The notes: generated by a model not told the origin, from the sequence alone. Numbered from the stretch's first letter, positions 1 to 61,932 are shown. The stretch: DNA of 64,000 bases from Candidatus Hodarchaeota archaeon (GCA_029856365.1 JAHQWW010000007.1:1-64000), one strand, 5' to 3'. Made by a program: numbers and translations.

Positions 1-1500
1 CATCTTGAGTTCCAAATAGGCTGCTCCCAAAGCCAGAATCCCTTCTAAGGTTTTTTCTAAATATTTTGCTGCCTTGGTTAACTGCTCTTCAGCTTTGGCG
101 GGAACAGCTAAAGGGCGTTTCTTATACAAATTCTTAAATATTAACCAAGATTTAAATAATCCTTTATAAGCAGGTATATTATCAGGCCCATATTGCAAGA
201 CCACTCCATAAACACGCACTGCATCAGAAATATACGTCGTATATTGCTTATCTATGAATAATTCTAAACTTAAATCTCCTATTTGCAGGTAAGTCTGGAT
301 TAGGTTCCTTATAGCTTTTTCTTTGTATTCATTATGTTCAGGGCCGAAATCTCTTGAAATAAACTCCAGATAAAAACGAGCAGCCTGTTTAAAATATGCA
401 ATTGCTATGTCTTTGTTTTTACTTATTTGTTCCTTTGCTTGCCTATAATAATTATTGGCATTTTCCAGCGGACTACTCGCGCCCGGACCTCTACCCGGTT
501 CAAGAGGGAATTCATTTTCAGGTAGAAGAGGGCTATCAACTATTCGAGCAATACGCCGTTCACCTTTTGATTTTCGAAGGTATACGCGTGTTTGAGCAGC
601 ATGAGCGACGATATGTCCTCCTACAGGATGAGTTGGGTCACCGAAAAATTGGTCGGGTTTGGCATGGACTTGGTTGGTGACTATAACAACAAGATTCCCG
701 ATCTCTGCAGCTCGTAAAATGGTATGAATGTGTTGATTGAGTTTTTGTTGGCGAGTGGCTAATGTTCCCCGACCCACATATTCTGCTCTGAAATGAGCAA
801 TCATTGAATCGACTACCAACAACTTAACATTTTCTGTGGGTAAATAATCTTTAATCATTTTTTCTACCAATACCATTTGGTGATCGGAATTATGGGCACG
901 TCCATGCAGAATGTTTTCTAATAACAAATCTTCATCTAGATCATCCTTCCATCGTGAGGCCATTGATAAAATGCGTTCTGGACGAAATGTTCCCTCACTA
1001 TCAACGTATACGACTTTAGGGTATTTATCACCATCTCGTAATCCCCCCTTTTCTCGTGGCAATTGAACAGTTACACAAAGCTGATGGGCTATCTGAGTTT
1101 TTCCGGTCCGAAATTCGCCAAAAAGCTCTGTAACAGTGCCTGTTTCGACCCCACCACCAAATAATTCATCTAATTTTTGGCTACCTGTAGTAACTTTAGC
1201 CAATTCTTTACGACGGGCCAATACCGATTTAGCGGTCTCAAAGTCAATATCAAGTGCTTCTCGTGCAGTTTCAATAATTTTTTTGACTGTTTTTTCCCCC
1301 ATACTTGCAATTGAGGTTAACTCTCCAATCGAAACTGTCGCAATGGATTCTAACGTGGAAAAACCTGCCTCTACCAATTTTGCTGCGGTAGAAGGCCCTA
1401 TCCCAGGCAAATCAGTGATTGATGTCACATGTTTAGTCTTTTCTCCAGCTTTTGCTTCGGCATCTGTTTCAGTCTTTTCAGATTTTTTCTTTGGTGTCAT
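1..1500 (-). CDS. radA: RadA recombinase (about 330 aa) continuing in frame into a >=170 aa TPR-like helical extension; runs off the window edge
   Basis: Manual translation from ATG at 1500 (absent from the ORF track because there is no stop). N-terminal HhH DLPGIGPSTAAKL, Walker A GEFRTGKTQ, YVDSEGTFRPER, Walker B LLVVDS, GRGTLATRQQKL, VTNQV, RIARIVDSP. No stop codon down to base 1. Confidence 0.93.
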   Translation of the reverse strand, partial: MTPKKKSEKTETDAEAKAGEKTKHVTSITDLPGIGPSTAAKLVEAGFSTLESIATVSIGELTSIASMGEKTVKKIIETAREALDIDFETAKSVLARRKELAKVTTGSQKLDELFGGGVETGTVTELFGEFRTGKTQIAHQLCVTVQLPREKGGLRDGDKYPKVVYVDSEGTFRPERILSMASRWKDDLDEDLLLENILHGRAHNSDHQMVLVEKMIKDYLPTENVKLLVVDSMIAHFRAEYVGRGTLATRQQKLNQHIHTILRAAEIGNLVVIVTNQVHAKPDQFFGDPTHPVGGHIVAHAAQTRVYLRKSKGERRIARIVDSPLLPENEFPLEPGRGPGASSPLENANNYYRQAKEQISKNKDIAIAYFKQAARFYLEFISRDFGPEHNEYKEKAIRNLIQTYLQIGDLSLELFIDKQYTTYISDAVRVYGVVLQYGPDNIPAYKGLFKSWLIFKNLYKKRPLAVPAKAEEQLTKAAKYLEKTLEGILALGAAYLELKM

Positions 1501-2015
1501 TATCTTACTCGTCCTAGAGGGAGATTCTCTCACAGGATAATAGAGAACTATCATTTTTTTGAATCCATGAACCCCTTAAATCTTTTCTGCTTTTGAGAAA
1601 TATAACGAAATTAGAAATATTAAGACAGAATTAAGGCTCTCTATCATTATTTTTTTTTACAATAAATTTAGCGTTATATGTCTTGAGTATTACAACTAGA
1701 ATACCCCCATGCTAGAAATAGATCAAGGATAATTGGTTTGGATTAATTATTTTTCACTAGGATTCCCTTCCAAACCCATCTAGTGCTTTATGAGTAAGAT
1801 AAATGTTCAAGCTTAATTAAAATAGTCCGTATGATACTTATTTAAGTGGTCTTAGATAATTGATTTTTCTCAAAACAGGTTCTCTACAAGAGATTAAATG
1901 CCCTTAAGAAAGATAATGTCTAAAAGTATAATGATTTTCTTGGGAATACAAAAATCCTTAAATCGTAAAATCTTAAATAATAAATCCCTGAGGTATGACT
2001 TGTTCATAGAGATTA

Positions 2016-2972
2016 TTGGTTGAAGAGAACGATAGAAAGGGATCGAACTTGACCAATCATATTATCACCCAATTTAAACTAATAAATTTCAGTATTTTCA
2101 CGAAAAAAAACCGTGGTGTCTCTCCTGTCTTAGCGACTGTCATAATATTCGGATTAATTATTACAGGAGTTATGATAACCTTTGTTCAAGTTATCCCATA
2201 TATAGAGCAGGCACAGAGCGAGGAAGCGATTGCAGCAGCTCGGAATAGTTTTTTAGAGCTTGACACCACAATTAAATCATTATTAAGCGAAAGTGGAACT
2301 CCTGGAGGTTTCCGAACTATTTTATTTTCTAAACCCTCGGGAATCGTTTATTTTATTGAAGACCGCTATTATTTTTCGTTACGATTATATGACCAGGATG
2401 ATAACATTGTCTATACAATCTTCGATGAACAAGAAGTTGGAGCCCTTGATTGGGTCTATAATAGCCCTCGATCGGTTCTACCTCGTGGGACCACAAAATA
2501 TTTAACTGGACCTGATCCCTATAAAACTCGTGACCCAATACTGTTGACAGGAACATTTTCTTCAACAGATTATCAAGATTTAACTAACCTAACATTGAGT
2601 CATCTTAATGATAAGAAACATCACATAACCTTAAACTATCGGATAGCTATTTATTTGACAATTTTGACACAACCAGAGCCAGAAATCCGCTTTGAAGTCT
2701 TTTTAATTTTACTCTCAGCAGATTTCGAAACCATCAACTCTCAATATCAGCAGATCGCAATTCATTCTAACTATAATTTTTCCACACCCTTTACTTTAAC
2801 GGATAATGACGGCTCAATTGGAGGTTTAGAGCTAGTATGGGACAATATCCAACCATCAGGAATATCTACTACGTCCATTTGGAGTACTCATTCGATCCAA
2901 GGCTTTAATGTTCAGTACTTCAATATAGTGGTACAAACATTGGTATATGAAATGGGTCTTTCAAAATCTTAA
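2016..2972 (+). CDS. Archaeal type IV pilin-like protein with class III signal peptide
   Basis: KKNRG/VSPVLATVIIFGLII motif (basic residues, G cleavage site, hydrophobic helix); true start probably downstream of 2016. Confidence 0.8.
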   Translation: MVEENDRKGSNLTNHIITQFKLINFSIFTKKNRGVSPVLATVIIFGLIITGVMITFVQVIPYIEQAQSEEAIAAARNSFLELDTTIKSLLSESGTPGGFRTILFSKPSGIVYFIEDRYYFSLRLYDQDDNIVYTIFDEQEVGALDWVYNSPRSVLPRGTTKYLTGPDPYKTRDPILLTGTFSSTDYQDLTNLTLSHLNDKKHHITLNYRIAIYLTILTQPEPEIRFEVFLILLSADFETINSQYQQIAIHSNYNFSTPFTLTDNDGSIGGLELVWDNIQPSGISTTSIWSTHSIQGFNVQYFNIVVQTLVYEMGLSKS

Positions 2973-2998
2973 GAAAAATATGATAATGGTAGTTTGAT

Positions 2999-3451
2999 AT
3001 GGCTTCACAATATATCACCTTTATGATCATCTTCATACTTGGCCTGAGTATGGTTTTAGTTACAAACAGCATGTTTGCAACTTTGAGTGATCAATTTCGA
3101 GAAAATATCGCTGAAGTTGAACTATCACAAATCCTAGATCTAATTCAGATGCAAATCCTGCAATCACTTCTTCTTCCCATGGACTCTAATCAAACAATCG
3201 ATCAACAATTAGAACTACCGATACTATTAGGGCAAAAATTTCAGTATTATATTGAAATTTATAATTCGAGTGACAATCAGATAATTCTTCACGGTTTTTC
3301 TACCGATGAAAAAATCAATCAAATAACCACCTTCTCAGTGGGAGCAAAATACATAATTCAAACCTCTGAATCATCATTTCAGAGTATAAACATGCTGCTT
3401 ACTTTACATATCGAAAAGAATGCAGACAAAGTTGTAATAACAATCTTATAG
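2999..3451 (+). CDS. Pilin-like / pilus accessory protein with N-terminal hydrophobic helix
   Basis: N-terminal TM helix followed by an amphipathic helix and beta-rich domain; lies within the pilus cluster. Confidence 0.6.
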   Translation: MASQYITFMIIFILGLSMVLVTNSMFATLSDQFRENIAEVELSQILDLIQMQILQSLLLPMDSNQTIDQQLELPILLGQKFQYYIEIYNSSDNQIILHGFSTDEKINQITTFSVGAKYIIQTSESSFQSINMLLTLHIEKNADKVVITIL

Positions 3452-3606
3452 GTATTAATTTCAATAAACTTACCAAACGACTATCATTAATTTAATAGAA
3501 AAGCCTAAATATAATAAACACTAAAAGATATTAGATTAAGTAAAATATTACACTTGAAAAAACAAATCTATTAGATCTAGTAAAAAAAAAGAGGAGCTAC
3601 AGACAG

Positions 3607-5115
3607 ATGTCTGAGTCAAGTAGTTTAATTCGAGAAACTTATCCTTTAATCCCTCCATTCAGTTATGCACTAGTTGCAACCGACCCTGAAACAAAACAGA
3701 CAAAATATACCGTGGTTGAAGTTCCTTTAAGTACAAAAGAGAATGACATCTTGGATATGATAAAAAATATTCTTGAGGAGGAATTGGATGTTGATTTTAA
3801 TGTGCTTAAAAACCCCGAAGTGGCACGTGACTATCTTCGATCGAAAGTAATTGGAATTGCCAAGGATTATGGGCTAAAACTAGATGAAAAGACATTTGAT
3901 AAAATCAATTACCATATTACTCGTGATTTTGTTGGTTTCGGGCCGATTGATGCGATGTTGAAGGATCATAATGTTGAAGATATCTCCTGTGATGGTGTAG
4001 GAATTCCTGTCTATATTTGGCATCGTAAATTTGAAAGTATCCAGACTAATGTAAAATTCGAAGAAGAAGATCTGCTAGATGCTTTTATTATCAAATTAGC
4101 TCAACGAGCTGGACGACATATTAGTGTAGCAAGACCTTTACTTGATGCTGCCTTACCAGACGGCAGTCGTCTTCAGTTAACATATGGGCGAGAAGTTACA
4201 CAACGCGGTAGCACATTCACTATTCGAAAATTCCGATCGGATCCATTAACCATCACTGATATGGTTATATTCAACACTATTGATGAAGATTTAGCTGCAT
4301 TCTTATGGTATGTCTTAGAAAATAGAAATTCTATTGTTATTGCAGGAGGAACTGCAGCAGGAAAAACCTCATTACTCAATAGTTTAGCTATGTTCATCCG
4401 ACCAGGAATGAAGATTGTTTCAATTGAAGACACAGCAGAACTTCATATCCCCCATGAGAATTGGATCCCTGCAGTTGCACGTGAAGGTTATGGCGGACGT
4501 GAAGCAGATGGTTCACGGAGAGGAGAAGTTTCAATGTATGATCTATTACGTGCAGCACTTCGTCAAAGACCTGATTACCTTTTTGTTGGAGAAGTTAGAG
4601 GGGCAGAAGCTTATAACCTCTTTCAAGCAATGGCTACTGGTCACACTGGAATGGGTACAATTCATGGAGACAGTGTATCGGGCACAATAAGACGTTTAGA
4701 GAACGAACCAATGAATATACCTCGAACATTAATTCAAACATTGAACCTAGTTCTTGTTCTTCGTAAAGTACGTCGTGGTGACAAACAAGTACGACGAGTG
4801 ATTGAGTGTACAGAAATCGTAGGAATTGACCCTGTAACTACTGAATTGATCACTAACAAAGTTTTTGGATGGAATGCTCGTGAAGATGCATTCATTAATT
4901 ATGGGCGATCCTATGCATTGGAAGGAATTCAGGAAGCACAAGGATTTACTGAAGCTCAAGCTTTTGATGAACTTGAAAGACGAAAAACAATCTTACGATG
5001 GATGGTTAAAAAGAAGTTAGCTCATTATACTCAAGTTTCTGAAGTTATAAACAGCTATTACCAGAATGCACTTGAAACAGTTGATCGAGCAAAACGTGAA
5101 TTGAAGTCGATATAA
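3607..5115 (+). CDS. Type IV pilus / type II secretion assembly ATPase (VirB11/ArlI-like)
   Basis: EDISCDG, FTIRKF, Walker A GGTAAGKTS, SIEDTAEL, LRQRPD, Walker B VGEVRG, AMATGH. Confidence 0.95.
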   Translation: MSESSSLIRETYPLIPPFSYALVATDPETKQTKYTVVEVPLSTKENDILDMIKNILEEELDVDFNVLKNPEVARDYLRSKVIGIAKDYGLKLDEKTFDKINYHITRDFVGFGPIDAMLKDHNVEDISCDGVGIPVYIWHRKFESIQTNVKFEEEDLLDAFIIKLAQRAGRHISVARPLLDAALPDGSRLQLTYGREVTQRGSTFTIRKFRSDPLTITDMVIFNTIDEDLAAFLWYVLENRNSIVIAGGTAAGKTSLLNSLAMFIRPGMKIVSIEDTAELHIPHENWIPAVAREGYGGREADGSRRGEVSMYDLLRAALRQRPDYLFVGEVRGAEAYNLFQAMATGHTGMGTIHGDSVSGTIRRLENEPMNIPRTLIQTLNLVLVLRKVRRGDKQVRRVIECTEIVGIDPVTTELITNKVFGWNAREDAFINYGRSYALEGIQEAQGFTEAQAFDELERRKTILRWMVKKKLAHYTQVSEVINSYYQNALETVDRAKRELKSI

Positions 5116-5125
5116 ACAAGATCTC

Positions 5126-6052
5126 TTGGAGAGTTTATTTTTGAGTAAAGTTATCAGAAGAGTCGGTTATCTGAGATTTGGTAAATTTCTAGAATCATGG
5201 ATTGAAAAAGGAAGTTTTGATAGGCTTAATAGAAGTCTAAAAAGAGCAGGTATGGATATTTCCATACGAGCTTACTTAGGAAGCGCTATTTTCAGTTCAA
5301 TACTAATAGGATTTTTCTCTTTTTTCTTAATAACATTGGGAAGCATTTTCCTTCTTCAAACCACAGATCCGACTGCAGACTTACAAAGCCAATTAATTCC
5401 ATCCATTCTAATTGGGGTGATCATTGGAGTAGTATGTAGTGTTCTAATATATTTACCATTTTTATATTGGCCTCAAATGAAAGCAACTGATCGTAAAATC
5501 TTAATAGAAGCGGGATTACCCTCAACAGCGTCATACCTCTCTGCTATGTCAAGTTCAGGCGTTCCCCCTAATAGGTTATTTTACTCTCTTGCAGGAGAAG
5601 CCTCAGTTGCTCCAGAAATTTCTAAAGAGAGTAAGAGAATTACCCGAGATATTGAGATCTTTGGGTACGATATTCTAAAGGCTTTACGAACCGCAAGTAA
5701 TAGGTCTCCCACTGAAAGATTCTCCAAATTCTTGGATGGAATGTCAGCTACTATTACTAGTGGAGGAGATTTAACCTTCTTTCTCTCCGCTGAAGCTAAA
5801 GCTTTAATGAAACTAAAAGAAGAAGAAACTAAGGAATTTATTGATCAATTAGGAGTATTAGCTGAGATTTTTATGATTTTAGGAGTAGTTGCCCCCTTAT
5901 TCTTCGTAGTAATTGCGGCTATTCTTTCTGTCATTACAAAGGATGCTATTACGGGGCTCGTTATTCTTATGTTACTATTAGCATACCTTATTATGCCTAT
6001 CTCATTAATGATAATGATTTTACTAATCTCTACTATTTCACGCGAAATATAA
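5126..6052 (+). CDS. Type II secretion system F / TadC-like membrane platform protein
   Basis: Multiple TM helices, YLSAMSSSG and DIEIFGYDILKAL...SGGDL pattern, directly after the ATPase. Confidence 0.9.
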   Translation: MESLFLSKVIRRVGYLRFGKFLESWIEKGSFDRLNRSLKRAGMDISIRAYLGSAIFSSILIGFFSFFLITLGSIFLLQTTDPTADLQSQLIPSILIGVIIGVVCSVLIYLPFLYWPQMKATDRKILIEAGLPSTASYLSAMSSSGVPPNRLFYSLAGEASVAPEISKESKRITRDIEIFGYDILKALRTASNRSPTERFSKFLDGMSATITSGGDLTFFLSAEAKALMKLKEEETKEFIDQLGVLAEIFMILGVVAPLFFVVIAAILSVITKDAITGLVILMLLLAYLIMPISLMIMILLISTISREI

Positions 6053-6074
6053 TACTAAAGGAGGTTTCAAAATA

Positions 6075-7076
6075 ATGGGAAAGTTAACGACAAAACGTGA
6101 ACAGCGAATCTGGATTATTTCAGTGATTCTCTGTATAATTGGATTAATTATTTCTTTTACCTTTTACGTTCCTGTTCTAGAACACATCTTTGACTTTATC
6201 GAAAATCCTCCTTCCCTCGCAAATCGTGATAATATAGATTCATATCTTTTTTCTATAAGAGAAGTGAGTCTTACCTCTGTATTTTCATTTGGTTTTATTG
6301 ACCTTTTAGATTTTACATTTTTAACAATTCTTGTTTTAATTTTCCTCCCAGCTTGGATCTATCATTCTGATCGAAGATGGCGTGATAACATTGATGATCA
6401 CATTCCTTCTTTGTTACGTGAGATTTCTGATGCTCAGAAGACTGGCCTTCCTTTACCAAGAGCAATTTTGGAAGCTTCAAAACATCAATATGGTGAACTA
6501 ACACCTGAATTAAAAAAAATGGCAGCCAAGATCAGTTGGGGAATCCCTTTTAGCAAAACTTTACGAACTTTAACTGAGACTGCTGATACTACACTAATGA
6601 AAAGAACTTCACTATTAATTTTAGAAGCAGAACGCTCTGGAGGAGCTATTGAGGATGTTTTTGAATCAGCTCACAAACATGTATCAGAAATATTAGGTCT
6701 AAAACGAGAACGCCTCGCAGCGATGAAACCCTATACTTGGATTATCTATGCATCCTTCATTGTATTTGCTTTTGTAATGATTATTCTACTTATAACATTT
6801 TTTCAAGGATTAGCAAATCAGATTGTTGATTCTGTAAGAGCAGAACAAGCACCTACGGCAGCATTGCCATTCTGCGTGGCAGGTTTACAATTGATCTTTT
6901 TTCATATGATGATTATTGAAGCTGTATTCGCAGGTCTCATTGCTGGAAAGATGGGTGAAGGAGATGCTAAAATTGGGCTTCGACATTCTTGTATTCTTTT
7001 AATTCTCTGCTACATTATGTTTAAAGCCATAATTATCGGACCAGAGATTCTTGGGTTTTTGGAAACGATCGCGTGA
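6075..7076 (+). CDS. Second T2SSF / TadC-like membrane platform protein
   Basis: IPSLLREISDAQKTGLPLPRAI, YGELTPEL, SWG, SGG, GLIAGKMGEG motifs. Confidence 0.9.
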   Translation: MGKLTTKREQRIWIISVILCIIGLIISFTFYVPVLEHIFDFIENPPSLANRDNIDSYLFSIREVSLTSVFSFGFIDLLDFTFLTILVLIFLPAWIYHSDRRWRDNIDDHIPSLLREISDAQKTGLPLPRAILEASKHQYGELTPELKKMAAKISWGIPFSKTLRTLTETADTTLMKRTSLLILEAERSGGAIEDVFESAHKHVSEILGLKRERLAAMKPYTWIIYASFIVFAFVMIILLITFFQGLANQIVDSVRAEQAPTAALPFCVAGLQLIFFHMMIIEAVFAGLIAGKMGEGDAKIGLRHSCILLILCYIMFKAIIIGPEILGFLETIA

Positions 7077-7543
7077 GGTTATTATTTATGGGAAAAGAAG
7101 AAAAAATGCTATCAGAATTACTAGAAAAAGTTTCAGCACTAGAAGATAAGCTAACCAACATGGAGTTTCTAATGGTTCAAGGTATGGGATCAGGAGGACC
7201 AACTCTCAAAACTCCATCCTTTTCATCCGCTTCTGCTCCGATAACTGGCCCTGTTGAAGTCGACTTAGCCCCTCTCGAGAGGAGAATATCTGAAATTGAA
7301 GGTAACGTCACAGAGATGATGAATAAACTTAATAACTTAGCAGACTTAACTTCCGCATTAAAGACAGAGAAAACACAGAAAGCAGATGAGTTAATTTCCC
7401 AAGCCACCTCTCTTTTGGAGAAAGGGCTTCAATTAACTGAATTAGAAACTACAATGCTCGAATTAAAAGATCGCATTCAGGAAATAGTTATTCAACTTGA
7501 AGTAGCCAATGTTGGTTCCTCGAATGATGAGGGCATGTCTTAG
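7073..7543 (+). CDS. Cytoplasmic coiled-coil protein in the pilus operon
   Basis: Heptad-rich helices separated by a G/S/P linker; overlaps the tadC stop. Confidence 0.6.
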   Translation: MRLLFMGKEEKMLSELLEKVSALEDKLTNMEFLMVQGMGSGGPTLKTPSFSSASAPITGPVEVDLAPLERRISEIEGNVTEMMNKLNNLADLTSALKTEKTQKADELISQATSLLEKGLQLTELETTMLELKDRIQEIVIQLEVANVGSSNDEGMS

Positions 7544-7574
7544 TATCCTTAAATGAGAATTTTCAGAAAGATAA

Positions 7575-8744
7575 ATGTGTAATAAAATGGTTTTTTCAAG
7601 ACTTAAAAAACGACGGTGTGGACAGATTAGAGCTGTCGACTTCGTGGTGAGTCTTTTTCTCTTCTTACTCATGTTATCACAGTTGATTTTGATTATCATT
7701 AATGTCCAATCTAGTATTAGAACAGGTACAATTGGAACCCTAACTTATGAGGAATTAGATATCTTTGGACGTAAATTACTTTTTGAGGAAGGAGATACTA
7801 ACTGGGGATATCTACAAAAGCTTCCAAGAACATTTGGACTTGCAGATTCAAATTCACATTCACTCTTGACTTTAGATAGCGCAAAAATAGCACGACTCAT
7901 TACTGGTACCTTTCTCCCTATATCACCTGTATCGGGATTCGATATGTATGACTATACAACTCTTAAGGAGACTGTAGGTCTGGAAAGGGAATATGATTTC
8001 AAATTGGGATTTTATCCTTTGTTAGAACCAGAAATAACTGTATCCACATCAGATTTTGCTCAAGTTAAAGTTACAGATACTTATAATGCTCCTATTTCTA
8101 ACGCTCAGGTTAATTTCTTTACCATTGATCTGACCAATGGAGATGTAATTTCAGAAGGATCAACACTAACAGACTCAAGAGGAGATACGACCCTCCAACT
8201 GTCAGATCCCACCAGAAATGATCCAAAGGGTGAACATATTGTATTTATTATTGTAGAAAAAGGTCCTCTCTGGGGAATGAATTGGGGATTCCACGATCCT
8301 ACATCTGAAACAGTTATTATCGGTTCAACTTCAACCACTGCTGTTTGGGGAGGAGGTATTAATACTTCCAGCCTGTTGATAACAGATAGACTGGAAGAGA
8401 CTCCTGATTCACATTTTCTCTCTATCATATATCAAAACAGTACATCGTGCTATTTCAATAAAACAATGGACTTATCTACGGCTTATGAGGGAAATGAAAC
8501 AGTTTCAATTCCTAATGAGGGATTAATTACTTTTTTCAGTATTGCAAGGATCAATGATGAATACCAAGTAGGAATAGGAACATATCCTTCAATTTTAGAT
8601 CGTGATTCAACTAGTGGAATATTTTATCAGGTATTTGGTGAGTTAATTCCTAATGAGAGAATCAAATCAATGCTATCAAGATTATACCCTATTATCGTCA
8701 GAGGTACATTGATGAGATGCCAACTTACCATCTGGAGAAGATAG
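7575..8744 (+). CDS. Large pilin-like protein (class III signal, GQ type) with Ig-like beta domain
   Basis: KKRRCG/QIRAVDFVVSLFLFLLML; beta-sandwich-like VKVTDTYNAPISNAQV...TDSRG. Confidence 0.7.
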   Translation: MCNKMVFSRLKKRRCGQIRAVDFVVSLFLFLLMLSQLILIIINVQSSIRTGTIGTLTYEELDIFGRKLLFEEGDTNWGYLQKLPRTFGLADSNSHSLLTLDSAKIARLITGTFLPISPVSGFDMYDYTTLKETVGLEREYDFKLGFYPLLEPEITVSTSDFAQVKVTDTYNAPISNAQVNFFTIDLTNGDVISEGSTLTDSRGDTTLQLSDPTRNDPKGEHIVFIIVEKGPLWGMNWGFHDPTSETVIIGSTSTTAVWGGGINTSSLLITDRLEETPDSHFLSIIYQNSTSCYFNKTMDLSTAYEGNETVSIPNEGLITFFSIARINDEYQVGIGTYPSILDRDSTSGIFYQVFGELIPNERIKSMLSRLYPIIVRGTLMRCQLTIWRR

Positions 8745-8748
8745 AACA

Positions 8749-9261
8749 ATGCAAAAAAATCGAGACCATGCCCATAGAGGCCAACTTCAAATCGCAGAAA
8801 CACTTGTTTCTGTGGCTTTAATGTTAGTTCTCGCTCTTCTCCTGATTAATGCGACTAACCAAACACTATCTCCCTATTCCAATCTTACAAGCATGGATCA
8901 ATCAGCAACAGATATTCTTATAGCTGCAGATGAAGCAGGGCTATTACGACCCGTAATATATCTTTATGGTGACACTAAATATGAAGCTGATTATTCTTCA
9001 TACAGAAGTCAACTGGAAGAATACATTTCCATTGTCGTCTCTGACAACATTGATTATGCATTAATTGCACATGAAATCAACAATAATACTGTAGAATCTA
9101 ATTATTTCAGCCCTATTGGCTCTTCAACAGCTATTTCAGCAATACAGCAAGGAGGAGAGGGAGTTGTTGCAAACTACCACTTAGGCTCCTTTACTTCCGC
9201 TACTTTTGGTCATTATTCCACACAATATCTTATTCAATTATATTTATGGGAGAAATTCTAG
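8749..9261 (+). CDS. Pilin-like protein (class III signal, GQ type)
   Basis: HRG/QLQIAETLVSVALMLVLALL. Confidence 0.75.
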   Translation: MQKNRDHAHRGQLQIAETLVSVALMLVLALLLINATNQTLSPYSNLTSMDQSATDILIAADEAGLLRPVIYLYGDTKYEADYSSYRSQLEEYISIVVSDNIDYALIAHEINNNTVESNYFSPIGSSTAISAIQQGGEGVVANYHLGSFTSATFGHYSTQYLIQLYLWEKF

Positions 9262-9984
9262 ATGGAGTTTTTAGGATTCATATACATGAAATATCGTCAC
9301 CGAGGTCAAATGTTCATCTTAGCAACAATGTTGATTGCAGTCTATATTGTTACGATGACGGCAGCTTTGATGAATCTTGGAGCTGAGCAAATCAAATTTG
9401 ATCGTGAATCAATACGAGAGCCATACTTAGATTCAAAGCGTGAAATTCAAAATTATTTAGAACTAATTCTCGCTGAGTATAGTAAAAATGGAACCACAAT
9501 AAAGAGTGCTACTATCGCGAAAACTAAAATCGAGGAATTCTTAGTAGGAATGGGGAGCTTCTATTTCACCCGTGGTGTCAATTTGAAAGTTCAATTACGC
9601 AATAATAACTTCAATATCATAGCAAAGCAATCCCCATATGAGAATATCTCTGATGGGGCTGTTTACACCAGTGAAATTCATGCAGAATTTAATTTGAGGA
9701 TGAGTTCTGTGTCCTCCACATTTAACATTGATGAATCCTTTACTATTGTCTTTGTTGGCCGGGCTGAAATTCAAGGGAATCGTATTATTGTTCAACAAAA
9801 GACTGAAAACCAGTTTGAATACATTGAAGCTGCGTCAGTCAATATCTTCAATGGTTCTAGTCGTTTTTTTCCTAATGTAAATCCAGATCAAACTGGAGTT
9901 TATTACTTTGAGGGGAAAAATAATCTAAATGATCTAGGAGTTCTCAATGTTACTTTAATGAATGGAGTTCAAATTCTCTCGTGA
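9262..9984 (+). CDS. Pilin-like protein (class III signal, GQ type)
   Basis: MKYRHRG/QMFILATMLIAVYIV; likely start at 9286. Confidence 0.72.
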   Translation: MEFLGFIYMKYRHRGQMFILATMLIAVYIVTMTAALMNLGAEQIKFDRESIREPYLDSKREIQNYLELILAEYSKNGTTIKSATIAKTKIEEFLVGMGSFYFTRGVNLKVQLRNNNFNIIAKQSPYENISDGAVYTSEIHAEFNLRMSSVSSTFNIDESFTIVFVGRAEIQGNRIIVQQKTENQFEYIEAASVNIFNGSSRFFPNVNPDQTGVYYFEGKNNLNDLGVLNVTLMNGVQILS

Positions 9985-9990
9985 GAGGAA

Positions 9991-12900
9991 ATGATTGAGA
10001 AAGAATTTCAGGAATACATTCAAAATATAAAAAAAATTCTTGAAACTCAAGTTCAGCTTGCAACACAAGCTCGGGCCCTCAAAATAGATCCCCAAACCAC
10101 AATAGAAACTAAACTTACATATTCTTCGGAAGCAAAAATCGCTGCTATTCTAAATATCCCTAGATTAAAGGAATATCTCCCTCAAAATATTTCACAGCAT
10201 GAAAATCCCCTCCTTTTAGCAGCGGATATTGCCAAACAAATAGTTAATGGCCGGTTTGTAAAGAAAACCCGTGAGAATCTAATATTATTAGCATTGCACA
10301 GCGCTTTAGTGATTTTAAGTCAGGGATTAATCTCTGTTCCTCAGGAAAGTATTCCAAAGGTTTCGATTGGATCTAAATCTAATCATTTAACGATTTACTT
10401 TTCTAATACAATACGATATGCCACTGGGGAAACTATTGGCTTAGTCATCCTCATTGCAGACTATATTCGGCATATATTGCACTTAAACCGCTTTAACCCT
10501 TCCCCAGAGTTGACGGGAAGATATATTGAAGAATTAGAACTTTTTCTTACCATGAATGATCGTTTTCAACATCTAAGAATAGATTTAATCAGATTTCTCG
10601 TTCAAAACATTGGTGTTGAAATCTCTGGAGAAGCATATGAACGAATTGAAGTTAAGAAATATAGAAATTTGCCTAATATGACGAATAAACTTCGAATGGG
10701 GATGTGTGTAGCTTTTGATAAAATAATTGGAAACATCAATTCAATTGCTTATCGTCGTTTAGCATCAGGGATTCCTGAATGGCAGTGGTTGAAACCCTCT
10801 TTTGATAGGATAAGACGTGGAAAACACGAGTTTGGGCGAAGAGAAATGCGTGGAACGCAGCCTTTACTCTCAAGGTCGAGAAAACCTGGAGGTTTTAGAT
10901 TGAGATATGGTCTATCACGTAATACTAGTCAAGGTGCAGCAGGAATCCATCCTGCAACAATGTACCTGACCGAAATGCTCTCTCCAGGCACAAACATAAA
11001 AATTGATTTCATGGAACGGCCACTTACAATATTTCCAGTTTCCAGCTTATCTGGTCCATTTGTTGAATTAAAGGATGGTTCAAGCGAGAGAATTGAATCT
11101 TTAGCGAGAATTTGTGATATAGAAAATCAGGTAGTGCAGATCTGGGAAATGGGAGACATTCTACTCTCTCCTGATGATATTCCTGTTACTGAAACTGTCG
11201 AATTATCTGCTTGGACAGAAGAATGGTGGAGTCAAGAAATCAAGCACTATATTTACTCGAAAATGAGATCGCTAGAGAATTTTGCATTAAGTCTAAATAT
11301 TAACCCCAAAAAGTTAGAAGATTTGTTAACAGAACCAACCCAGTGTAAACCCTCTCCGGAAATTGCTCTTAATCTAAGTAAGATAAGTAATATACCTATT
11401 CATCCCTTCTATTCTTTTAACTGGAATGAAATTGCTATAAGTGATCTAATAAGATTAATTCAGAAACTCAATGATTCCAGTGATGGCTTACTTCCTAATG
11501 AAGATGATTTAAAGGAAATTCTTAGACGATTAGGTGTCCCCTTCATTATTTATAAAGATTACATTCAAACAGAACGATTTCAATTATTTATTCGAGCATT
11601 AAGAGGAAAAGAAGACCAATTAACTAAGTTCATTTCAAAATCATTAAAACCAATAGAAATCGAAAAATTAATTCCAATCCTTACAAAGATTCCTGTACGA
11701 TCATTATGTCAAAGAAGAATCGGATTGAAAATCATTCGAGTTGAAAAAGCGGAACCTCGACATATAAATCCACCAGCACACGTACTTTTCCCCATTAGTT
11801 CTCATGGTGGTGCCCAAAGAAATCTTTTAAAAGTTAAAAACACAACTAGTGTAGATATTCAGGTTTCCGAAAGGTTCTGTGAAACATGTAAGGAATCTAC
11901 CTTTGTTTCATATTGTCTAAAATGCCAACAGAAAACCAAGCAACAATTTGTTTGTAAAAAGGGGCACATTTCTAGCACACAAACATGTATGGAATGTGGC
12001 CAATATGCTTTTTCTGCAAGAGTTAAACCTGTTGATGTGGCAAGATTATTGGAATCAGGCTTTCAACAGGTAGGATCTCTTGAATTAAAAATAGTTAAAG
12101 GAGTTTCCTTTCTCAACAGCAAGAACCGAATACCCGAACACATCATTAAAGGCATATTACGAGCAAAACACAAAATTTTTGTTTACAAGGACGGGACAAG
12201 CCGTTTTGATCAAACCAATGCGCATCTCACCCACTTTACTCCTGAAGAAATTCATATCTCCATCAAGGATCTCATAAGATTAGGGTATTCTCACGATGTT
12301 AATGGAAATGACTTAACCCAAGAAAATCAGTTAATTGAGATTAATCCTTATGATGTAATAGTGAGTAAAGCAGCAGGTAATTTTCTTGTAAATTTATCCA
12401 ATTTCATTGATGATGAATTAGTCTTTTTGTATGATCTTTCACCTTATTATAGAATATATTCACTTAAGGATATTATGGGCTCTTTAATTGTGGGTTTGTC
12501 ACCTTTTTCGATGGTAGCTGTTATAGGTAGAGTAATTGGTTACACGGATAATAATGTTACTTATGCTCATCCTCTTTGGCACCTATTAAAAACTCGAAAT
12601 TGTAACGGGGATATAGACTCAATGACACTGCTCTTAGATGTATTACTTAATTTTTCTACTGAATTTATTCCTGCTTCGCGTGGGGGGACAATGGATGCAC
12701 CATTTATAATCAATCTTTCTGATAAATGGGAAGATACTTCAGTCTATGCAAATTATGATTCTGTATCGATGAATCTTTTATTTTATAGGAATCTAACTGA
12801 AAATCCTTTAAAAGATGAATTATTGTCTTACAAAAAGTCATACCTCATGCCCTCTTTTCCCAAATTTCATACGATAGATAATATTTCTCATTATAACTTC

Positions 12901-13314
12901 GAGAATCGTTTTCGTGAGAGTAAAATAGTTTCCAAAATTGAGACCGAATTACGGGTTCTCAGCCGCATTCGGGGGGTAAAGGAAGGGGAGTTTGTTGAAA
13001 ATATATTAGAAAACGATTTCCTGCCAAAAATTGCGACCTCATTGACTCGTTTCTTTCTTCAACCTGTACGATGCAATACATGTAATACTACCTTCAGACG
13101 GATCCCTCTTACAAAATGCCCTGTATGTCATCATCAGAATATGGGACTCACTTTATCAGAAGGATGGGTTTTAAGATATTTACAAATAATTAACCAGTTA
13201 AGAGATAGATATTATACAGACATTTCTGAATATTGTCAATCCTGGGTTGAACTGATTGAATTAAATAAACGTTTATTATTCGATAAAGGCCCTCGTCCAA
13301 CAACACTATTTTAA
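9991..13314 (+). CDS. polC: DNA polymerase D large subunit (DP2) homologue, divergent, catalytic motif altered
   Basis: GGFRLRYG, GIHPATM, KDGTSRFD, THFTPEEI, RNCNGDID (canonical RNCDGDED), LLLDVLLNFS, RGGTMDAP, internal and C-terminal Cys4 zinc fingers. Confidence 0.9.
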   Translation: MIEKEFQEYIQNIKKILETQVQLATQARALKIDPQTTIETKLTYSSEAKIAAILNIPRLKEYLPQNISQHENPLLLAADIAKQIVNGRFVKKTRENLILLALHSALVILSQGLISVPQESIPKVSIGSKSNHLTIYFSNTIRYATGETIGLVILIADYIRHILHLNRFNPSPELTGRYIEELELFLTMNDRFQHLRIDLIRFLVQNIGVEISGEAYERIEVKKYRNLPNMTNKLRMGMCVAFDKIIGNINSIAYRRLASGIPEWQWLKPSFDRIRRGKHEFGRREMRGTQPLLSRSRKPGGFRLRYGLSRNTSQGAAGIHPATMYLTEMLSPGTNIKIDFMERPLTIFPVSSLSGPFVELKDGSSERIESLARICDIENQVVQIWEMGDILLSPDDIPVTETVELSAWTEEWWSQEIKHYIYSKMRSLENFALSLNINPKKLEDLLTEPTQCKPSPEIALNLSKISNIPIHPFYSFNWNEIAISDLIRLIQKLNDSSDGLLPNEDDLKEILRRLGVPFIIYKDYIQTERFQLFIRALRGKEDQLTKFISKSLKPIEIEKLIPILTKIPVRSLCQRRIGLKIIRVEKAEPRHINPPAHVLFPISSHGGAQRNLLKVKNTTSVDIQVSERFCETCKESTFVSYCLKCQQKTKQQFVCKKGHISSTQTCMECGQYAFSARVKPVDVARLLESGFQQVGSLELKIVKGVSFLNSKNRIPEHIIKGILRAKHKIFVYKDGTSRFDQTNAHLTHFTPEEIHISIKDLIRLGYSHDVNGNDLTQENQLIEINPYDVIVSKAAGNFLVNLSNFIDDELVFLYDLSPYYRIYSLKDIMGSLIVGLSPFSMVAVIGRVIGYTDNNVTYAHPLWHLLKTRNCNGDIDSMTLLLDVLLNFSTEFIPASRGGTMDAPFIINLSDKWEDTSVYANYDSVSMNLLFYRNLTENPLKDELLSYKKSYLMPSFPKFHTIDNISHYNFENRFRESKIVSKIETELRVLSRIRGVKEGEFVENILENDFLPKIATSLTRFFLQPVRCNTCNTTFRRIPLTKCPVCHHQNMGLTLSEGWVLRYLQIINQLRDRYYTDISEYCQSWVELIELNKRLLFDKGPRPTTLF

Positions 13315-13537: not shown

Positions 13538-14194
13538 GTGATTAAAGGGTTGATAGATAACGAGAAAGAGGTTTTAATAGGCAATCTACTGAAAACTTTG
13601 ACAACTGGGAGTGTATCGAAGCAAAATAAAGGGATTATATCGATGCCAAGTGACCAACCTGTGACAGAAGCGGCAAAATTGATGGTAGAGAATCGGATAG
13701 GTTCTATCATTATTAAAAATAACCAAATTGAAGGAATTATCACAAAGGGGGATATTATCAATCGTGTGGTAGGCCGTGCTTTAGACCCAGGAATTGTTGT
13801 AGTTGATGATGTTATGAGTAAACCTGTTTCTTATGTCTCTGAAGATGAAACTTTAGAGAACACTATGTTACTAATGGGTCAGGAAAACATCGAACGGATT
13901 TTAGTGGTTAAAGATAATGATCTTTCTCAACCTTTAGGGATCGTTTCCACAAATGATATACTTAAATTTGCTCCAGGATTACTTCGAATTCACAGAGAGC
14001 GTCTTCTTATCGAAAATTTTTCTGGAAAGCACCCTGATGATAATAATCGCGAATCTATGAGGTTTGAAGGTTTTTGTGATGATTGTGGCAACTATTCGGA
14101 TACTCTCAAAACAGCTAATGGCTATACATTATGTCCAGCCTGTATGGGATCTCAACCAGAAGAAGAGCAATCCCCTGATGATGATATTATGTGA
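13538..14194 (+). CDS. CBS-pair protein with C-terminal zinc ribbon
   Basis: EAAKLMVENRIGS, GIITKGDI, VMSKPV, GIVSTNDI; C-terminal CDDC...CPAC. Confidence 0.88.
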   Translation: MIKGLIDNEKEVLIGNLLKTLTTGSVSKQNKGIISMPSDQPVTEAAKLMVENRIGSIIIKNNQIEGIITKGDIINRVVGRALDPGIVVVDDVMSKPVSYVSEDETLENTMLLMGQENIERILVVKDNDLSQPLGIVSTNDILKFAPGLLRIHRERLLIENFSGKHPDDNNRESMRFEGFCDDCGNYSDTLKTANGYTLCPACMGSQPEEEQSPDDDIM

Positions 14195-14245
14195 ACAACA
14201 TCCTATCCACGCAACGGAACTTCGTTGGTGAAATCAAATGTGGCT

Positions 14246-16291
14246 TTAATTATTTTTCTTCTCTAATTTTGAATACTCCACCCTAGATATAACTGAATCG
14301 TGTGGAATTGCTTGGACAAATTCATTCAAGTCAATTGCCCGTATTTTAGCTTTTTTTTCAGGAGAAACAGCCTTTTTTATGAAAATCTGATTAATTTGTT
14401 TTGCTATTTTACCTTTTGACTTAGAACCTGGTTTAATAATTACTGTTATGGGACTTCGCGAGCGAATATTCTCCTCAGAACCGTAAATAACTTTTGCATT
14501 GAATTCATCAACTTGAACTCCGATCGCTAAGGCCATTTCTACTCCTCTAACATAATTTCTTGTACCCCGAATCATTATTCCTCCTTTGGGGATATATTCG
14601 CCAGTTGGTGCGGAAAAACTTGCACTCTTAGCTGGCACATAATAAACGTCAATGGCACCATATCCAGCTTTCCAACCACTCGAAAACACTGCAGCTAAGA
14701 GTGCTGCATCAGCAAAATCTTGGTCTGTAACATTTTTTTCACTGGTATCACGAATTAAAATAGTATAAGGAGCTCCTTGTAATTCCGCATGAAAAAAGAT
14801 ATCATTTTCTTTCATACGTCGTTTTACAATTTCCTCGTTACTAGAGATGTCTTTTCCACCAATTATTAGAAATTTATTTCGGGTATTTGTCCAATGGTAC
14901 TTTTCATACCATTTTCTTTTTCTTCGTTTCAATGTAATGCTTTCTACTATTTTTTGTTCTGAAAGATTTTTAGTTAATAAATTAATTTTTCTTTCCGTTT
15001 CAAGTATAGCCTCATTAGCAGGGGTTATTTTGCGAGCAGCCTTTTTCGCACGTTGATAATACTCGTTTGCAATCTCAGTTGCTGATTTCCGAAAGTTTAC
15101 TTCAATTATTTCAGAGTTAAGATTGATACGAATAGTACCCCGTTCTGGACAAATCTCCTCTAGAATTTTTGCTGAATGTATTCCTTGTTCCTTTGCAATT
15201 TCTAATTTGTTCTGAATTACTGGCCAGGCAATGTTTTTTTTCCGAGCTATAACAATAGATGATAATAATTCGTCAATATCATTTAATTGAAGAAAAATAT
15301 TATCCCCCAGATCCTTGTAAAGCTTTTTCTTTTTTTTAAATCCTTCAAGGGTCTGTTTTTGCGCCTCTAAAACCTTGAGTAGCTTCTTTTTTTTCTGATC
15401 ATGCTGTTTAAGGCCAACAGAAACTATAGGGGATATATTCATATAGTAAAAATCTAATACGTGAGAAAAACTTTCGAAATATCGGATTTCTCCAGATATA
15501 GATTTGAAGTCAATAGGGTGAAAAGATAACGGTTTTTCATTTGAATCTAGGGCTATCGAGGGTTTCAGTTCTAGTAAATCTTTCTTAATATCCATAGTGG
15601 ATTGTAGAATTCGATTAATTTCTTCATTACTAATTTCCTTATTCTTCGTCTTTTTGGAAATGTTGGCTCGTGCCAGTAATTCCTCCATCAAATCTCCTCC
15701 TCCTCCAGCTTTCCGAGCTAATGTCCGTACAATTTCCTCATCTTCAACCTCTTCAGCAGAGAGAATCTGAGTAATTTCTTCGTAGTTCATATCTAAAATT
15801 GATTTTCCACGACTAGGTGGAAGTTCGAATTCTTTTCCAGGTAACACATCACGATGGCGCATTTTTCTATACCAAAGTGCTGAAATTACTCTGTTTTGAT
15901 TCCCAACAACAACTATATTCGGACGATTACCAAAAATCTCAACATAAACTCGATATTCCTGTTTTCCTCTCAATTTAATTTCTACTAATCTGTCAAAATC
16001 AACTTGACGAATACCGATCACTTCAGCTCCTTTCAGATGACTTCTTAGACCCATAATTTTGTCAGAAGGTCTTTCAGGAACAGGGTGTTTCACCTCTGTC
16101 AAATGTAATCGTATTCCTGGCTCAATCAGGAGAAATGGATCTTTAAAAGGGCCTTTCCCCTTGAACCTGAAAAGGAAATATTTTTCTGTTGAATCACGAT
16201 AGATATTAGCGACTCTATAACCTATTAGCCCTTGCAATTCTTTCGAAATGGCATAAATGTCTAAACTAGACATTCTCCTCACGCCTTGCAC
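14246..16291 (-). CDS. rqcH: NFACT-family ribosome quality control protein (Rqc2/NEMF/RqcH)
   Basis: MSSLDI, LRSHLKG, FDR motif, NEYYQRAKK, WYEKYHW, IGGKD...NE, FFHAE..GAP, APTGEYIPKGGIMIRG. Confidence 0.93.
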   Translation of the reverse strand: MQGVRRMSSLDIYAISKELQGLIGYRVANIYRDSTEKYFLFRFKGKGPFKDPFLLIEPGIRLHLTEVKHPVPERPSDKIMGLRSHLKGAEVIGIRQVDFDRLVEIKLRGKQEYRVYVEIFGNRPNIVVVGNQNRVISALWYRKMRHRDVLPGKEFELPPSRGKSILDMNYEEITQILSAEEVEDEEIVRTLARKAGGGGDLMEELLARANISKKTKNKEISNEEINRILQSTMDIKKDLLELKPSIALDSNEKPLSFHPIDFKSISGEIRYFESFSHVLDFYYMNISPIVSVGLKQHDQKKKKLLKVLEAQKQTLEGFKKKKKLYKDLGDNIFLQLNDIDELLSSIVIARKKNIAWPVIQNKLEIAKEQGIHSAKILEEICPERGTIRINLNSEIIEVNFRKSATEIANEYYQRAKKAARKITPANEAILETERKINLLTKNLSEQKIVESITLKRRKRKWYEKYHWTNTRNKFLIIGGKDISSNEEIVKRRMKENDIFFHAELQGAPYTILIRDTSEKNVTDQDFADAALLAAVFSSGWKAGYGAIDVYYVPAKSASFSAPTGEYIPKGGIMIRGTRNYVRGVEMALAIGVQVDEFNAKVIYGSEENIRSRSPITVIIKPGSKSKGKIAKQINQIFIKKAVSPEKKAKIRAIDLNEFVQAIPHDSVISRVEYSKLEKKNN

Positions 16292-60558: not shown

Positions 60559-61932
60559 TTGAATACTAATGCTGATTCAATAAGTTTTCAGACTATTATC
60601 GAGTCAGCAGCAATCATAATAACGTATTATGAAGAGAATCAAGTTTCCTTAAGAAGTGCTATGAAGATCATTCCAACATTTTTAGAGTCTGTTACTCCAG
60701 AAACTTATTCACAAATCCATGCTCTAGTATTTGAAACCGTAAGACATCAGAATGTTCTCAATCGGATTATTCATCTCAATTTTCAGAGATTTCTTGCAGA
60801 TAAAATCCCGAAAAAACTACATAATCTTTTACGGGTTTTAACATATCTTTTGACTATGTCCTCGGATGTTGAGAACGACCATCTCTTAGAAATAGCTCAT
60901 TTAATCACTCTTAATTCAATTGATGACCCCAACTTGGTTCATTTACTTAGAAATTATGTTGAAGATTTGAGGAATTGGGATTTAAGTTCATTTATTAAAA
61001 CAATTGATGACCCTGCAGAGAAACTAGCAGTTCAATTTTTCCATCCCACATGGTTAATTCGTGATTGGATTAATTATTATGGTTTAGAAACGACTAAAAG
61101 AATTTTAGAATCGAATAATCTTATTAAACCAGTTTATTTACGACTTGATCTAATGAATCATGATAAGATGGATATTATTGAACAATTGAGAGAGGAGGAA
61201 GTGGAAATCGAACAAGATAAACACCTTTTTGATGTTGTGAAAGTCTTATCATGGAAAATCCCTGTTCCTCGACTTCCTTCCTTCGTTAAAGGACTTTATT
61301 ATATTCAGGATAAAGGATCAGCACTTATTTCTCATATATTAGATCCTCAGAATGGAGAGGTGGTATTAGATGCTTGTGCAGCCCCTGGTGGGAAAACTCT
61401 TCACATTGCAGCGTTACAACAGGATTCAGGAACCATTATTGCTCTAGATAACCATTTTCGAAGATTAACTGAAATGGTAACAAAGGTTAACACTTTTAAG
61501 ATGAAAAGTATTTCACCAATTTTATATGATCTCCGATTGGGGCTGAAATTTCGAATAAAATTTGATAAAATCTTAGTAGATGCCCCCTGTTCTGGATCAG
61601 GTACCTTTGCATCCCGACCCGATGCTAAATGGCGTGTTGATCGTCACCAGACCAAATGGTTGAGTCAATTGCAATATTCTCTACTATCGAACGCTTCTAT
61701 CGTGCTTAGAAACACTCCAACTGCATCATTGGTTTATGCAACTTGTTCTCTTCATCCTATTGAAAATGAAGGAGTTGTAAAACAATTCCTAGAAAATCAT
61801 CCAGACTTTGTACTACAACCTCAAAAGATCTTTATCGGAACATCTAGCCCAGAATTCCCGTTAGCGCAACGTCTCTTCCCGCACTTGACTCAAACGGAAG
61901 GTTTTTCCATATTTAAACTTGGATGGAATTAG
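60559..61932 (+). CDS. RsmB/NOL1/NOP2/Sun RNA m5C methyltransferase
   Basis: IQD, LDACAAPGGKT, ILVDAPCSGSG, YATCSL...ENE. Confidence 0.93.
   Translation: MNTNADSISFQTIIESAAIIITYYEENQVSLRSAMKIIPTFLESVTPETYSQIHALVFETVRHQNVLNRIIHLNFQRFLADKIPKKLHNLLRVLTYLLTMSSDVENDHLLEIAHLITLNSIDDPNLVHLLRNYVEDLRNWDLSSFIKTIDDPAEKLAVQFFHPTWLIRDWINYYGLETTKRILESNNLIKPVYLRLDLMNHDKMDIIEQLREEEVEIEQDKHLFDVVKVLSWKIPVPRLPSFVKGLYYIQDKGSALISHILDPQNGEVVLDACAAPGGKTLHIAALQQDSGTIIALDNHFRRLTEMVTKVNTFKMKSISPILYDLRLGLKFRIKFDKILVDAPCSGSGTFASRPDAKWRVDRHQTKWLSQLQYSLLSNASIVLRNTPTASLVYATCSLHPIENEGVVKQFLENHPDFVLQPQKIFIGTSSPEFPLAQRLFPHLTQTEGFSIFKLGWN

Follow-up and report, generated by a model that had tools for sequence, protein, structure and literature searches.

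A Catalytically Degenerate DP2 Is the Only PolD Large Subunit Found in a Hodarchaeales Genome and May Persist as a Non-catalytic Component of the Replication Fork

Results

A DP2 Gene with a Substituted Catalytic Aspartate

We analyzed a stretch of 64,000 nucleotides from Candidatus Hodarchaeota archaeon (GCA_029856365.1 JAHQWW010000007.1:1-64000; hereafter the window), in which positions 9991-13314 (+) form an open frame of 1107 residues encoding an orthologue of DP2, the large subunit of PolD, the main DNA-copying enzyme of archaea. The profiles PF03833, PF24844, and PF24846 matched its N-terminal, central, and catalytic domains, and its score lay just below the NCBIfam cut-offs (687.8 vs. 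702.15 for TIGR00354). Bases 12601-12618 read TGT AAC GGG GAT ATA GAC and translate to C-N-G-D-I-D, as the initial annotation, made from the sequence alone, had reported. In the alignment, the codon AAC at 12604-12606 places Asn872 at the Mg-binding Asp956 of Pyrococcus abyssi DP2, and N870, N872, and D874 align with N954, D956, and D958, the triad seen binding Mg in that protein, of which both aspartates are essential for activity (PMC4996933). The annotation had also regarded C-D-G-D-E-D as invariant in DP2; this holds for the first two aspartates, whereas the rest of the motif varies (CDSDED, CDGDGD, and ADGDED occur). The letters of codon 12604 were the same (AAC, not GAC) in all covering contigs, which came from four runs of four studies, two of these runs being possibly the source of this DNA; one of them (X7) represents a strain that carried 14 differences elsewhere in 801 bases and left the codon unchanged.

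Three other motifs are altered relative to canonical DP2, as had been noticed at the outset and as the alignment bore out: HAAKRRN is replaced by HLLKTRN, APHTS by SPFSM, and PIRSAGGT by TIRYATGE. The a-, b-, and s-motifs of PolD have been defined by mutagenesis in Thermococcus 9N (PMC7708050), and three changed positions beyond N872, namely K392R, H923F, and R952T, have published mutagenesis support. In the a-motif of the Thermococcus enzyme, replacement of either aspartate by alanine abolishes synthesis, and the first arginine (the R952 equivalent) is needed for full extension; in the b-motif, alanine at the K392 equivalent leaves less than 15% of primers extended by 1 nucleotide; and in the s-motif, tyrosine at the steric-gate histidine abolishes activity (PMC7708050). 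A lysine-to-arginine change at the equivalent site of RNA polymerase abolishes transcription (PMC7708050). Besides the KH motif, the clamp and proofreading-channel residues R1114 (R1114T), K1129, and R1178 (R1178W) were also changed. An alignment of 73 canonical DP2 sequences has 177 columns with a conservation of 95% or more; 129 of these were kept here and 45 were lost in nearly all of the lineage, in which 23 columns were fixed at a new residue. Invariant cysteines were kept at 12 of 13 columns, with Zn-I and Zn-III present; one canonical Cys column of Zn-I/Zn-II is absent and His 659 is fixed in the lineage, and Zn-III is formed by Cys 1028, 1031, 1043, and 1046 (13072-13128). The C-terminal PIP (PCNA-interacting peptide)/primase peptide and its linker are missing, the protein ending in GPRPTTLF (table 1).

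Because the Mg-A site loses a carboxylate, the lysine at the primer end is gone, and a bulky aromatic residue occupies the nucleotide-sugar site, this DP2 very probably has no polymerase activity. The initial annotation had proposed an inactive DP2, and the case is stronger than it argued, with four mutagenesis-tested positions changed. An N872D reversion alone would probably not restore activity, since the b- and s-motif defects remain. By its domains and motifs, the protein is a DP2 orthologue that lacks the catalytic signature, and its classification as an active PolD should be avoided.

Copy Number, Distribution, and Selection

The genome (G000; 4.24 Mb, 84% complete) gave one DP2 match; profile search, tblastn, and a scan for motifs revealed no second DP2 in this 84%. 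Related genomes with a completeness of up to 99%, some of them at 94-99%, gave a single catalytic-domain match each. Thus, this DP2 is the only copy found, which settles the choice between a paralogue and a sole copy that the annotation had left open.

The position of D956 was occupied by Asn in 21 of the 23 Hodarchaeales genomes with DP2, by Ser in one, and by Phe in one, so that Asp was absent throughout (0/23). It was Asp in 14/14 other Heimdallarchaeia, in 77/77 canonical database homologues, and in 40/40 DP2 segments from other Asgard genomes, the last picked among the best matches of a phylum search, a choice that favours intact copies. As a separate observation, no match to the DP2 catalytic segment was found in Asgard families f19 (0/4 genomes, 82-91% complete) and f13 (0/1, G066, 96% complete), which might correspond to the Baldrarchaeia that lack DP2 according to Feng et al. 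or might be more cases of loss.

The nearest homologues of this DP2 are labelled Hodarchaeales or Heimdallarchaeota. Phylogenetic analysis placed all Hodarchaeales sequences (36/36) in one long-branched clade with a FastTree support of 1.0; the clade adjoined a TACK-like sequence and not the other Heimdallarchaeia, a position on a very long branch that allows no conclusion on origin. Identity between the Hodarchaeales families was 23-27%, compared with 30-35% between this DP2 and canonical DP2 of other orders. NGDID was present in a second family (genome G023) and in those members of the genus that branch off first, and the loss of a single Asp therefore looks ancestral in Hodarchaeales. From this state, D958 was lost as well in 7 of the 23 genomes, nested in the B3_Heim subclade and separately in G010. 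In G022, the whole catalytic loop was lost, and the eroded frame still encodes 1194 residues (L031:81-3662(-); 21-26% identity; Zn motifs kept); all genes that lost D958 or the loop remain full length. One lineage of database proteins from two assemblies (P0004 and P0121), nested among NGDID sequences, has regained Asp at 872 (CDGDID at about residue 870) and still carries changed s-, b-, and KH motifs.

The same distribution bears on whether the enzyme might be a slow or specialised but active polymerase with a rearranged site (N870/N872/D874/D876). D874, D876, R869, and K867 are kept, N872 is conserved across synonymous codons, Asp has returned in the P0004/P0121 lineage, and archaeal PolB2 is described, in the passage concerned, as active despite a lost Asp (PMC7544198). 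Against this stand the four separate motif defects and the presence of D960 in the dead single-Asp mutants, where it does not substitute. Sister lineages have moreover lost D958 too (7/23) with no gene decay seen, and the lineage with regained Asp keeps the changed motifs elsewhere. We consider residual polymerization improbable.

Pairwise dN/dS of DP2 with this genome was 0.11-0.15 (NG86), far below 1, which indicates purifying selection. Among canonical DP2, one pair was close enough for comparison and gave 0.073, which is too little to prove relaxed selection. The frame and fold appear intact, as annotated: an AlphaFold model (pLDDT 90.3, pTM 0.89) adopts the two-barrel fold with a TM score of 0.84-0.86 to P. 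abyssi DP2, although the input alignment was rich in canonical DP2 and the result speaks for compatibility with the fold only. The pattern looks like changed constraint rather than decay.

The incompleteness of the genome (84%) and the long DP2 branch could be taken to suggest a sequencing error, a pseudogene in decay, or a spare paralogue that accompanies an active DP2. The same codon in contigs of independent runs and the Asp-less state of 23 genomes, some of them 94-99% complete with a single DP2, make this hardly credible. A sequencing error, which the annotation too had thought unlikely as a single event, is ruled out by the covering contigs and the order-wide loss of Asp, and a decaying pseudogene by the dN/dS values.

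The DP1 Partner

The initial annotation had suggested a search for the small subunit, and a DP1 gene is present on another contig with one PF04042 match. In 15/15 genus members, its metal motif is GEHD in place of GNHD, a fixed Asn-to-Glu change; the catalytic His and all but one of the seven metal ligands are kept, and Glu can still bind metal. The N-terminal helical domain is visible in the genus, the aromatic loop of the primer channel is gone (its numbering was inferred), and dN/dS was about 0.15-0.28. In Thermococcus, the N-terminal domain of DP1 docks on GINS, and PolD stimulates the CMG helicase and bridges to primase (PMC9023282, PMC8096248). A search for GINS in this genome with PF05916 gave no match, and was uninformative, as the profile matched only 1 of 14 controls. 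A predicted complex of PriL with the DP2 C-terminal domain (CTD) scored 0.00 with an uncertain partner fold and was not used either way.

These features of DP1 raise the possibility that DP2 is kept as its DNA-holding partner, the heterodimer acting on its own in repair, as a nuclease or phosphoesterase, and not as a scaffold at the fork. The retained metal site, the constraint on DP1, and the 18 of 23 invariant arginines kept in DP2 agree with this, and the relevant passages of Kazlauskas et al. allow that the DP1 of B3 might still be active (PMC7544198). However, both subunits show a rewritten primer channel (loss of the aromatic loop in DP1; R1178W and R1114T in DP2), comparable channel mutants lose activity in P. 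abyssi, the DP1 of LC3 is reported in the same passages to be inactive (PMC7544198), and DP1 was not found in G022 and G023. We regard a nuclease role as unlikely. The loss of many DNA-contact residues weakens a purely DNA-binding role, one of the two roles that the annotation had offered, the other being that of a scaffold.

B10 and Other Polymerases

On a further contig, the genome encodes a B-family polymerase of the B10 group with 1895 residues, which is similar to the N-terminal half of Pol epsilon. Its exonuclease, A, B, and C motifs are present, with an intein splitting motif C, and it has a C-terminal Zn motif and a long basic linker; its best PDB matches are Pol epsilon (E 4e-41). A Cys cluster after motif A may resemble the CysX site of Pol epsilon. 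PF22634 (POL2 thumb) gave no match anywhere, controls included, and B10 was instead recognized by its motifs and by PF03104. The motifs are invariant across Hodarchaeales where the loci cover them, and identity between the families is 44%; dN/dS of B10 is inflated by inteins and cut loci, and the values were not used. A PolB1-like gene on contig C91, beginning beyond the window end and occupying window positions 61929-64000, has intact motifs and a C-terminal PIP box, and the genome also holds a PolB3-like gene and a PolB2-like fragment (L040) containing an intein.

Table 1. Features of the DP2 locus and related genes (positions are those of the window unless a contig or locus is named).
Feature	Position	Strand	Remarks
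DP2 orthologue, 1107 residues, no intein, catalytically degenerate; only DP2 found in genome	9991..13314	+	AlphaFold pLDDT 90.3; TM 0.84-0.86 to P. abyssi DP2
KH-domain template-binding motif, rewritten	10405..10431	+	canonical GPIRxxGGT, here NTIRYATGE; residues 139-147
b-motif of barrel 1	10999..11019	+	K337 kept (K386); F340 for R389; R343 for critical K392
Zn-I/Zn-II modules	11878..11997	+	Cys 630, 633, 642, 645, 655, 666, 669 kept
s-motif (nucleotide selectivity)	12499..12513	+	PFS for PHT; steric-gate His to Phe839
a-motif (catalytic loop) KTRNCNGDID	12589..12618	+	T868 for R952; N872 for D956; N870 (N954), D874 (D958), D876 (D960) kept
Clamp-1/C-terminal domain with Zn-III	12946..13284	+	DP1-docking module; strongly conserved in lineage
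Short conserved tail GPRPTTLF	13285..13311	+	where internal PIP box sits (Gln to Pro)
Type IV pilus/Tad-like gene run	2016..9984	+	pilin-like genes, FlaI/TadA ATPase, two T2SSF proteins, Ig-like protein; conserved in genus only
Pilus ATPase	3607..5115		
radA	1..1554	-	
CBS-domain protein and convergent RqcH	13538..16291		
PolB1-like gene, contig C91	64481..61932	-	
DP1	G000:C81, L041:736..2289	+	
B10	G000:C18:43882..49584 (also L074:2880..8567)	-	
PolB2-like fragment	L040 (G000:C200:1..2230)		

The Pilus Run and radA

DP2 closes a pilus gene run, starting 6 nucleotides after the stop of the last pilin-like gene. Both upstream genes are syntenic in 19/19 loci with that flank, with a gap of about 10 nucleotides at most; the whole run is kept in 8/8 genus genomes, and the divergent radA on its other side in 7/8. 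The pilus ATPase is 90-98% identical among genomes whose DP2 is only 52-84% identical. This arrangement might suggest that the adjoining type IV pilus and RadA recruited the dead DP2 as a factor that handles DNA in the cytoplasm during uptake or exchange. However, the degenerate DP2 of the two second-family genomes lies in other neighbourhoods, which implies that inactivation predates the linkage or is independent of it; canonical DP2 genes likewise tightly adjoin unrelated genes, and key template- and primer-binding residues are lost. We regard such a co-option as improbable.

Two other observations concern the flanks. In place of the last approximately 14 residues of radA, there is an unrelated TPR-like open frame, which is cut by the contig end, with a join near 510; these residues and the stop are present in seven relatives, and two more radA-like 3' ends lie on contigs C34 and C52. 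The join could be an element inserted in the radA 3' end or a chimeric contig end. Downstream of DP2, a gene for a CBS-domain protein with a C-terminal Cys motif and the convergent RqcH gene are syntenic in 19 genus loci.

Discussion

Retention of an Inactive PolD

We propose that B10 may have displaced PolD as the replicase and that DP1-DP2 was kept as a non-catalytic scaffold at the fork, a reading of the sequence data to which we would give a probability of roughly 0.55. Granted that DP2 is inactive, it would be reasonably probable that DNA synthesis passed to B10 on the stem of Hodarchaeales and that DP1-DP2 stayed because of a non-catalytic job at the fork. A fork component is suggested because PolD of Thermococcus, beyond its synthesis, is anchored to GINS, stimulates CMG, and forms a bridge to primase. 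By analogy with these activities, the dead heterodimer would most likely keep a helicase-anchoring role (GINS/CMG), and DP2 could serve as the folded support of DP1, much as Dpb2 is held by the inactive half of Pol epsilon.

This proposal is favoured by the altered motifs, by the genes that stay full length after the loss of D958 or the loop, by the low dN/dS, and by the N-terminal domain of DP1. B10 was present in 22 of 23 other Hodarchaeales genomes and in none of 37 other Heimdallarchaeia when this B10 was the query. In addition, relative conservation within DP2 has dropped in the barrels and the catalytic loop compared with canonical DP2, whereas the C-terminal helices and tail, which in canonical DP2 stand at 0.83x and 0.70x of the protein mean, reach 1.15x and 1.21x here; in the CTD, which has a mean column identity of 72% in the genus, Trp 1059 and Trp 1085 (the R1178 position) are newly fixed.

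Several points weigh against the proposal. The co-occurrence of B10 and altered DP2 counts as a single evolutionary event, not as 22, and is no statistical test, and for relative conservation a single genus was compared with many lineages. No segment of DP2 is more conserved within the lineage than the catalytic loop (1.35x), and both Asn codons are used at N872, which points to some constraint on the old active site. A scaffold for DP1 would need the CTD alone, yet all 1107 residues are conserved; and the lost C-terminal PIP/primase peptide is a scaffold element in Thermococcales. In the second-family genomes G022 and G023 (80-85% complete), DP1 was not found with PF04042 or with the DP1 of this genome, weak matches being other proteins. 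Finally, inactivity itself is judged from mutants of a distant thermophile, mostly Ala or Tyr and not the exact residues found here.

Comparison with Known Systems

Inactive DP2 together with B10 is already known from the Heimdall B3 and LC3 genomes, having been published briefly in 2020, a precedent of which the initial annotation was unaware. Kazlauskas, Krupovic, Guglielmini, Forterre, and Venclovas described a Heimdall_B3/LC3-like group without active DP2 and with co-occurring B10 (PMC7544198, Fig. 7, Figs S15-S16). That group resembles the present genome in its degenerate DP2, in its divergent DP1, and in a B10 that carries a Zn motif at the C-terminus; the account, in its passages on the group, covers two genomes and gives no selection test and no function (PMC7544198). 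The DP2 of B3_Heim (PWI48439.1, our P0032) is about 52% identical to this DP2 and falls in the same clade, and the C-terminal string published for the B10 of B3_Heim (PWI48375) recurs in a genome of the same genus (G002). Unlike the B3_Heim protein, which lost both aspartates (CNGATD), this DP2 keeps D958 and appears to represent the ancestral single-loss state. No functional study of Hodarchaeales DP2 came up in our literature searches. What is new is the apparently ancestral loss of a single Asp, the lineage with a regained Asp but without the other residues, and the position of DP2 at the end of a conserved pilus operon near radA. The gain is in detail and testability and not the discovery of the state: the graded series within one order (one Asp lost, both lost, the loop lost, one regained) makes a non-catalytic job of PolD testable in vitro.

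Compared with canonical DP2 of P. abyssi (PDB 6HMS, 6T8H, 8PPT, 9F2A), to which it is 29% identical, this DP2 shares the domain order, two-barrel fold, Zn-I, Zn-III, clamp-1/CTD, and a DP1 gene; it differs in its a-, b-, s-, and KH motifs, in the absent C-terminal PIP, and in the altered internal PIP. PolD is also described as inactivated independently in a different archaeal phylum, without B10 or a CTD-bearing PolB. Eukaryotic replicases are thought to have lost the catalytic core of PolD while keeping DP1 and the C-terminal domain of DP2.

The eukaryotic system with a possible likeness to ours is the Pol2-C, CTD, and Dpb2 part of Pol epsilon, in which an inactivated polymerase body and a DP2-type CTD holding a DP1-derived subunit stand beside an active enzyme of the Pol-epsilon-N type. 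However, the inactivated fold of Pol2-C is of the B family and shares one chain with the active half, whereas this DP2 has a two-barrel fold and is encoded on a gene and contig separate from B10. Feng et al. (2025) treat B10 as a precursor of Pol epsilon and, in their passages on it, make no mention of DP2 inactivation; there they report no two-hybrid contact of the Hodarchaeal B10 CTD with DP1 (PMC12680538). It is conceivable, although rather unlikely, that dead DP1-DP2 and B10 form a split Pol epsilon at the fork, in which B10 would be the catalytic half and the two-barrel pseudo-enzyme, together with DP1, the non-catalytic half coupling B10 to CMG. If so, Hodarchaeales would be a living example of a B-family enzyme displacing the PolD core, with DP1 and the DP2 CTD kept.

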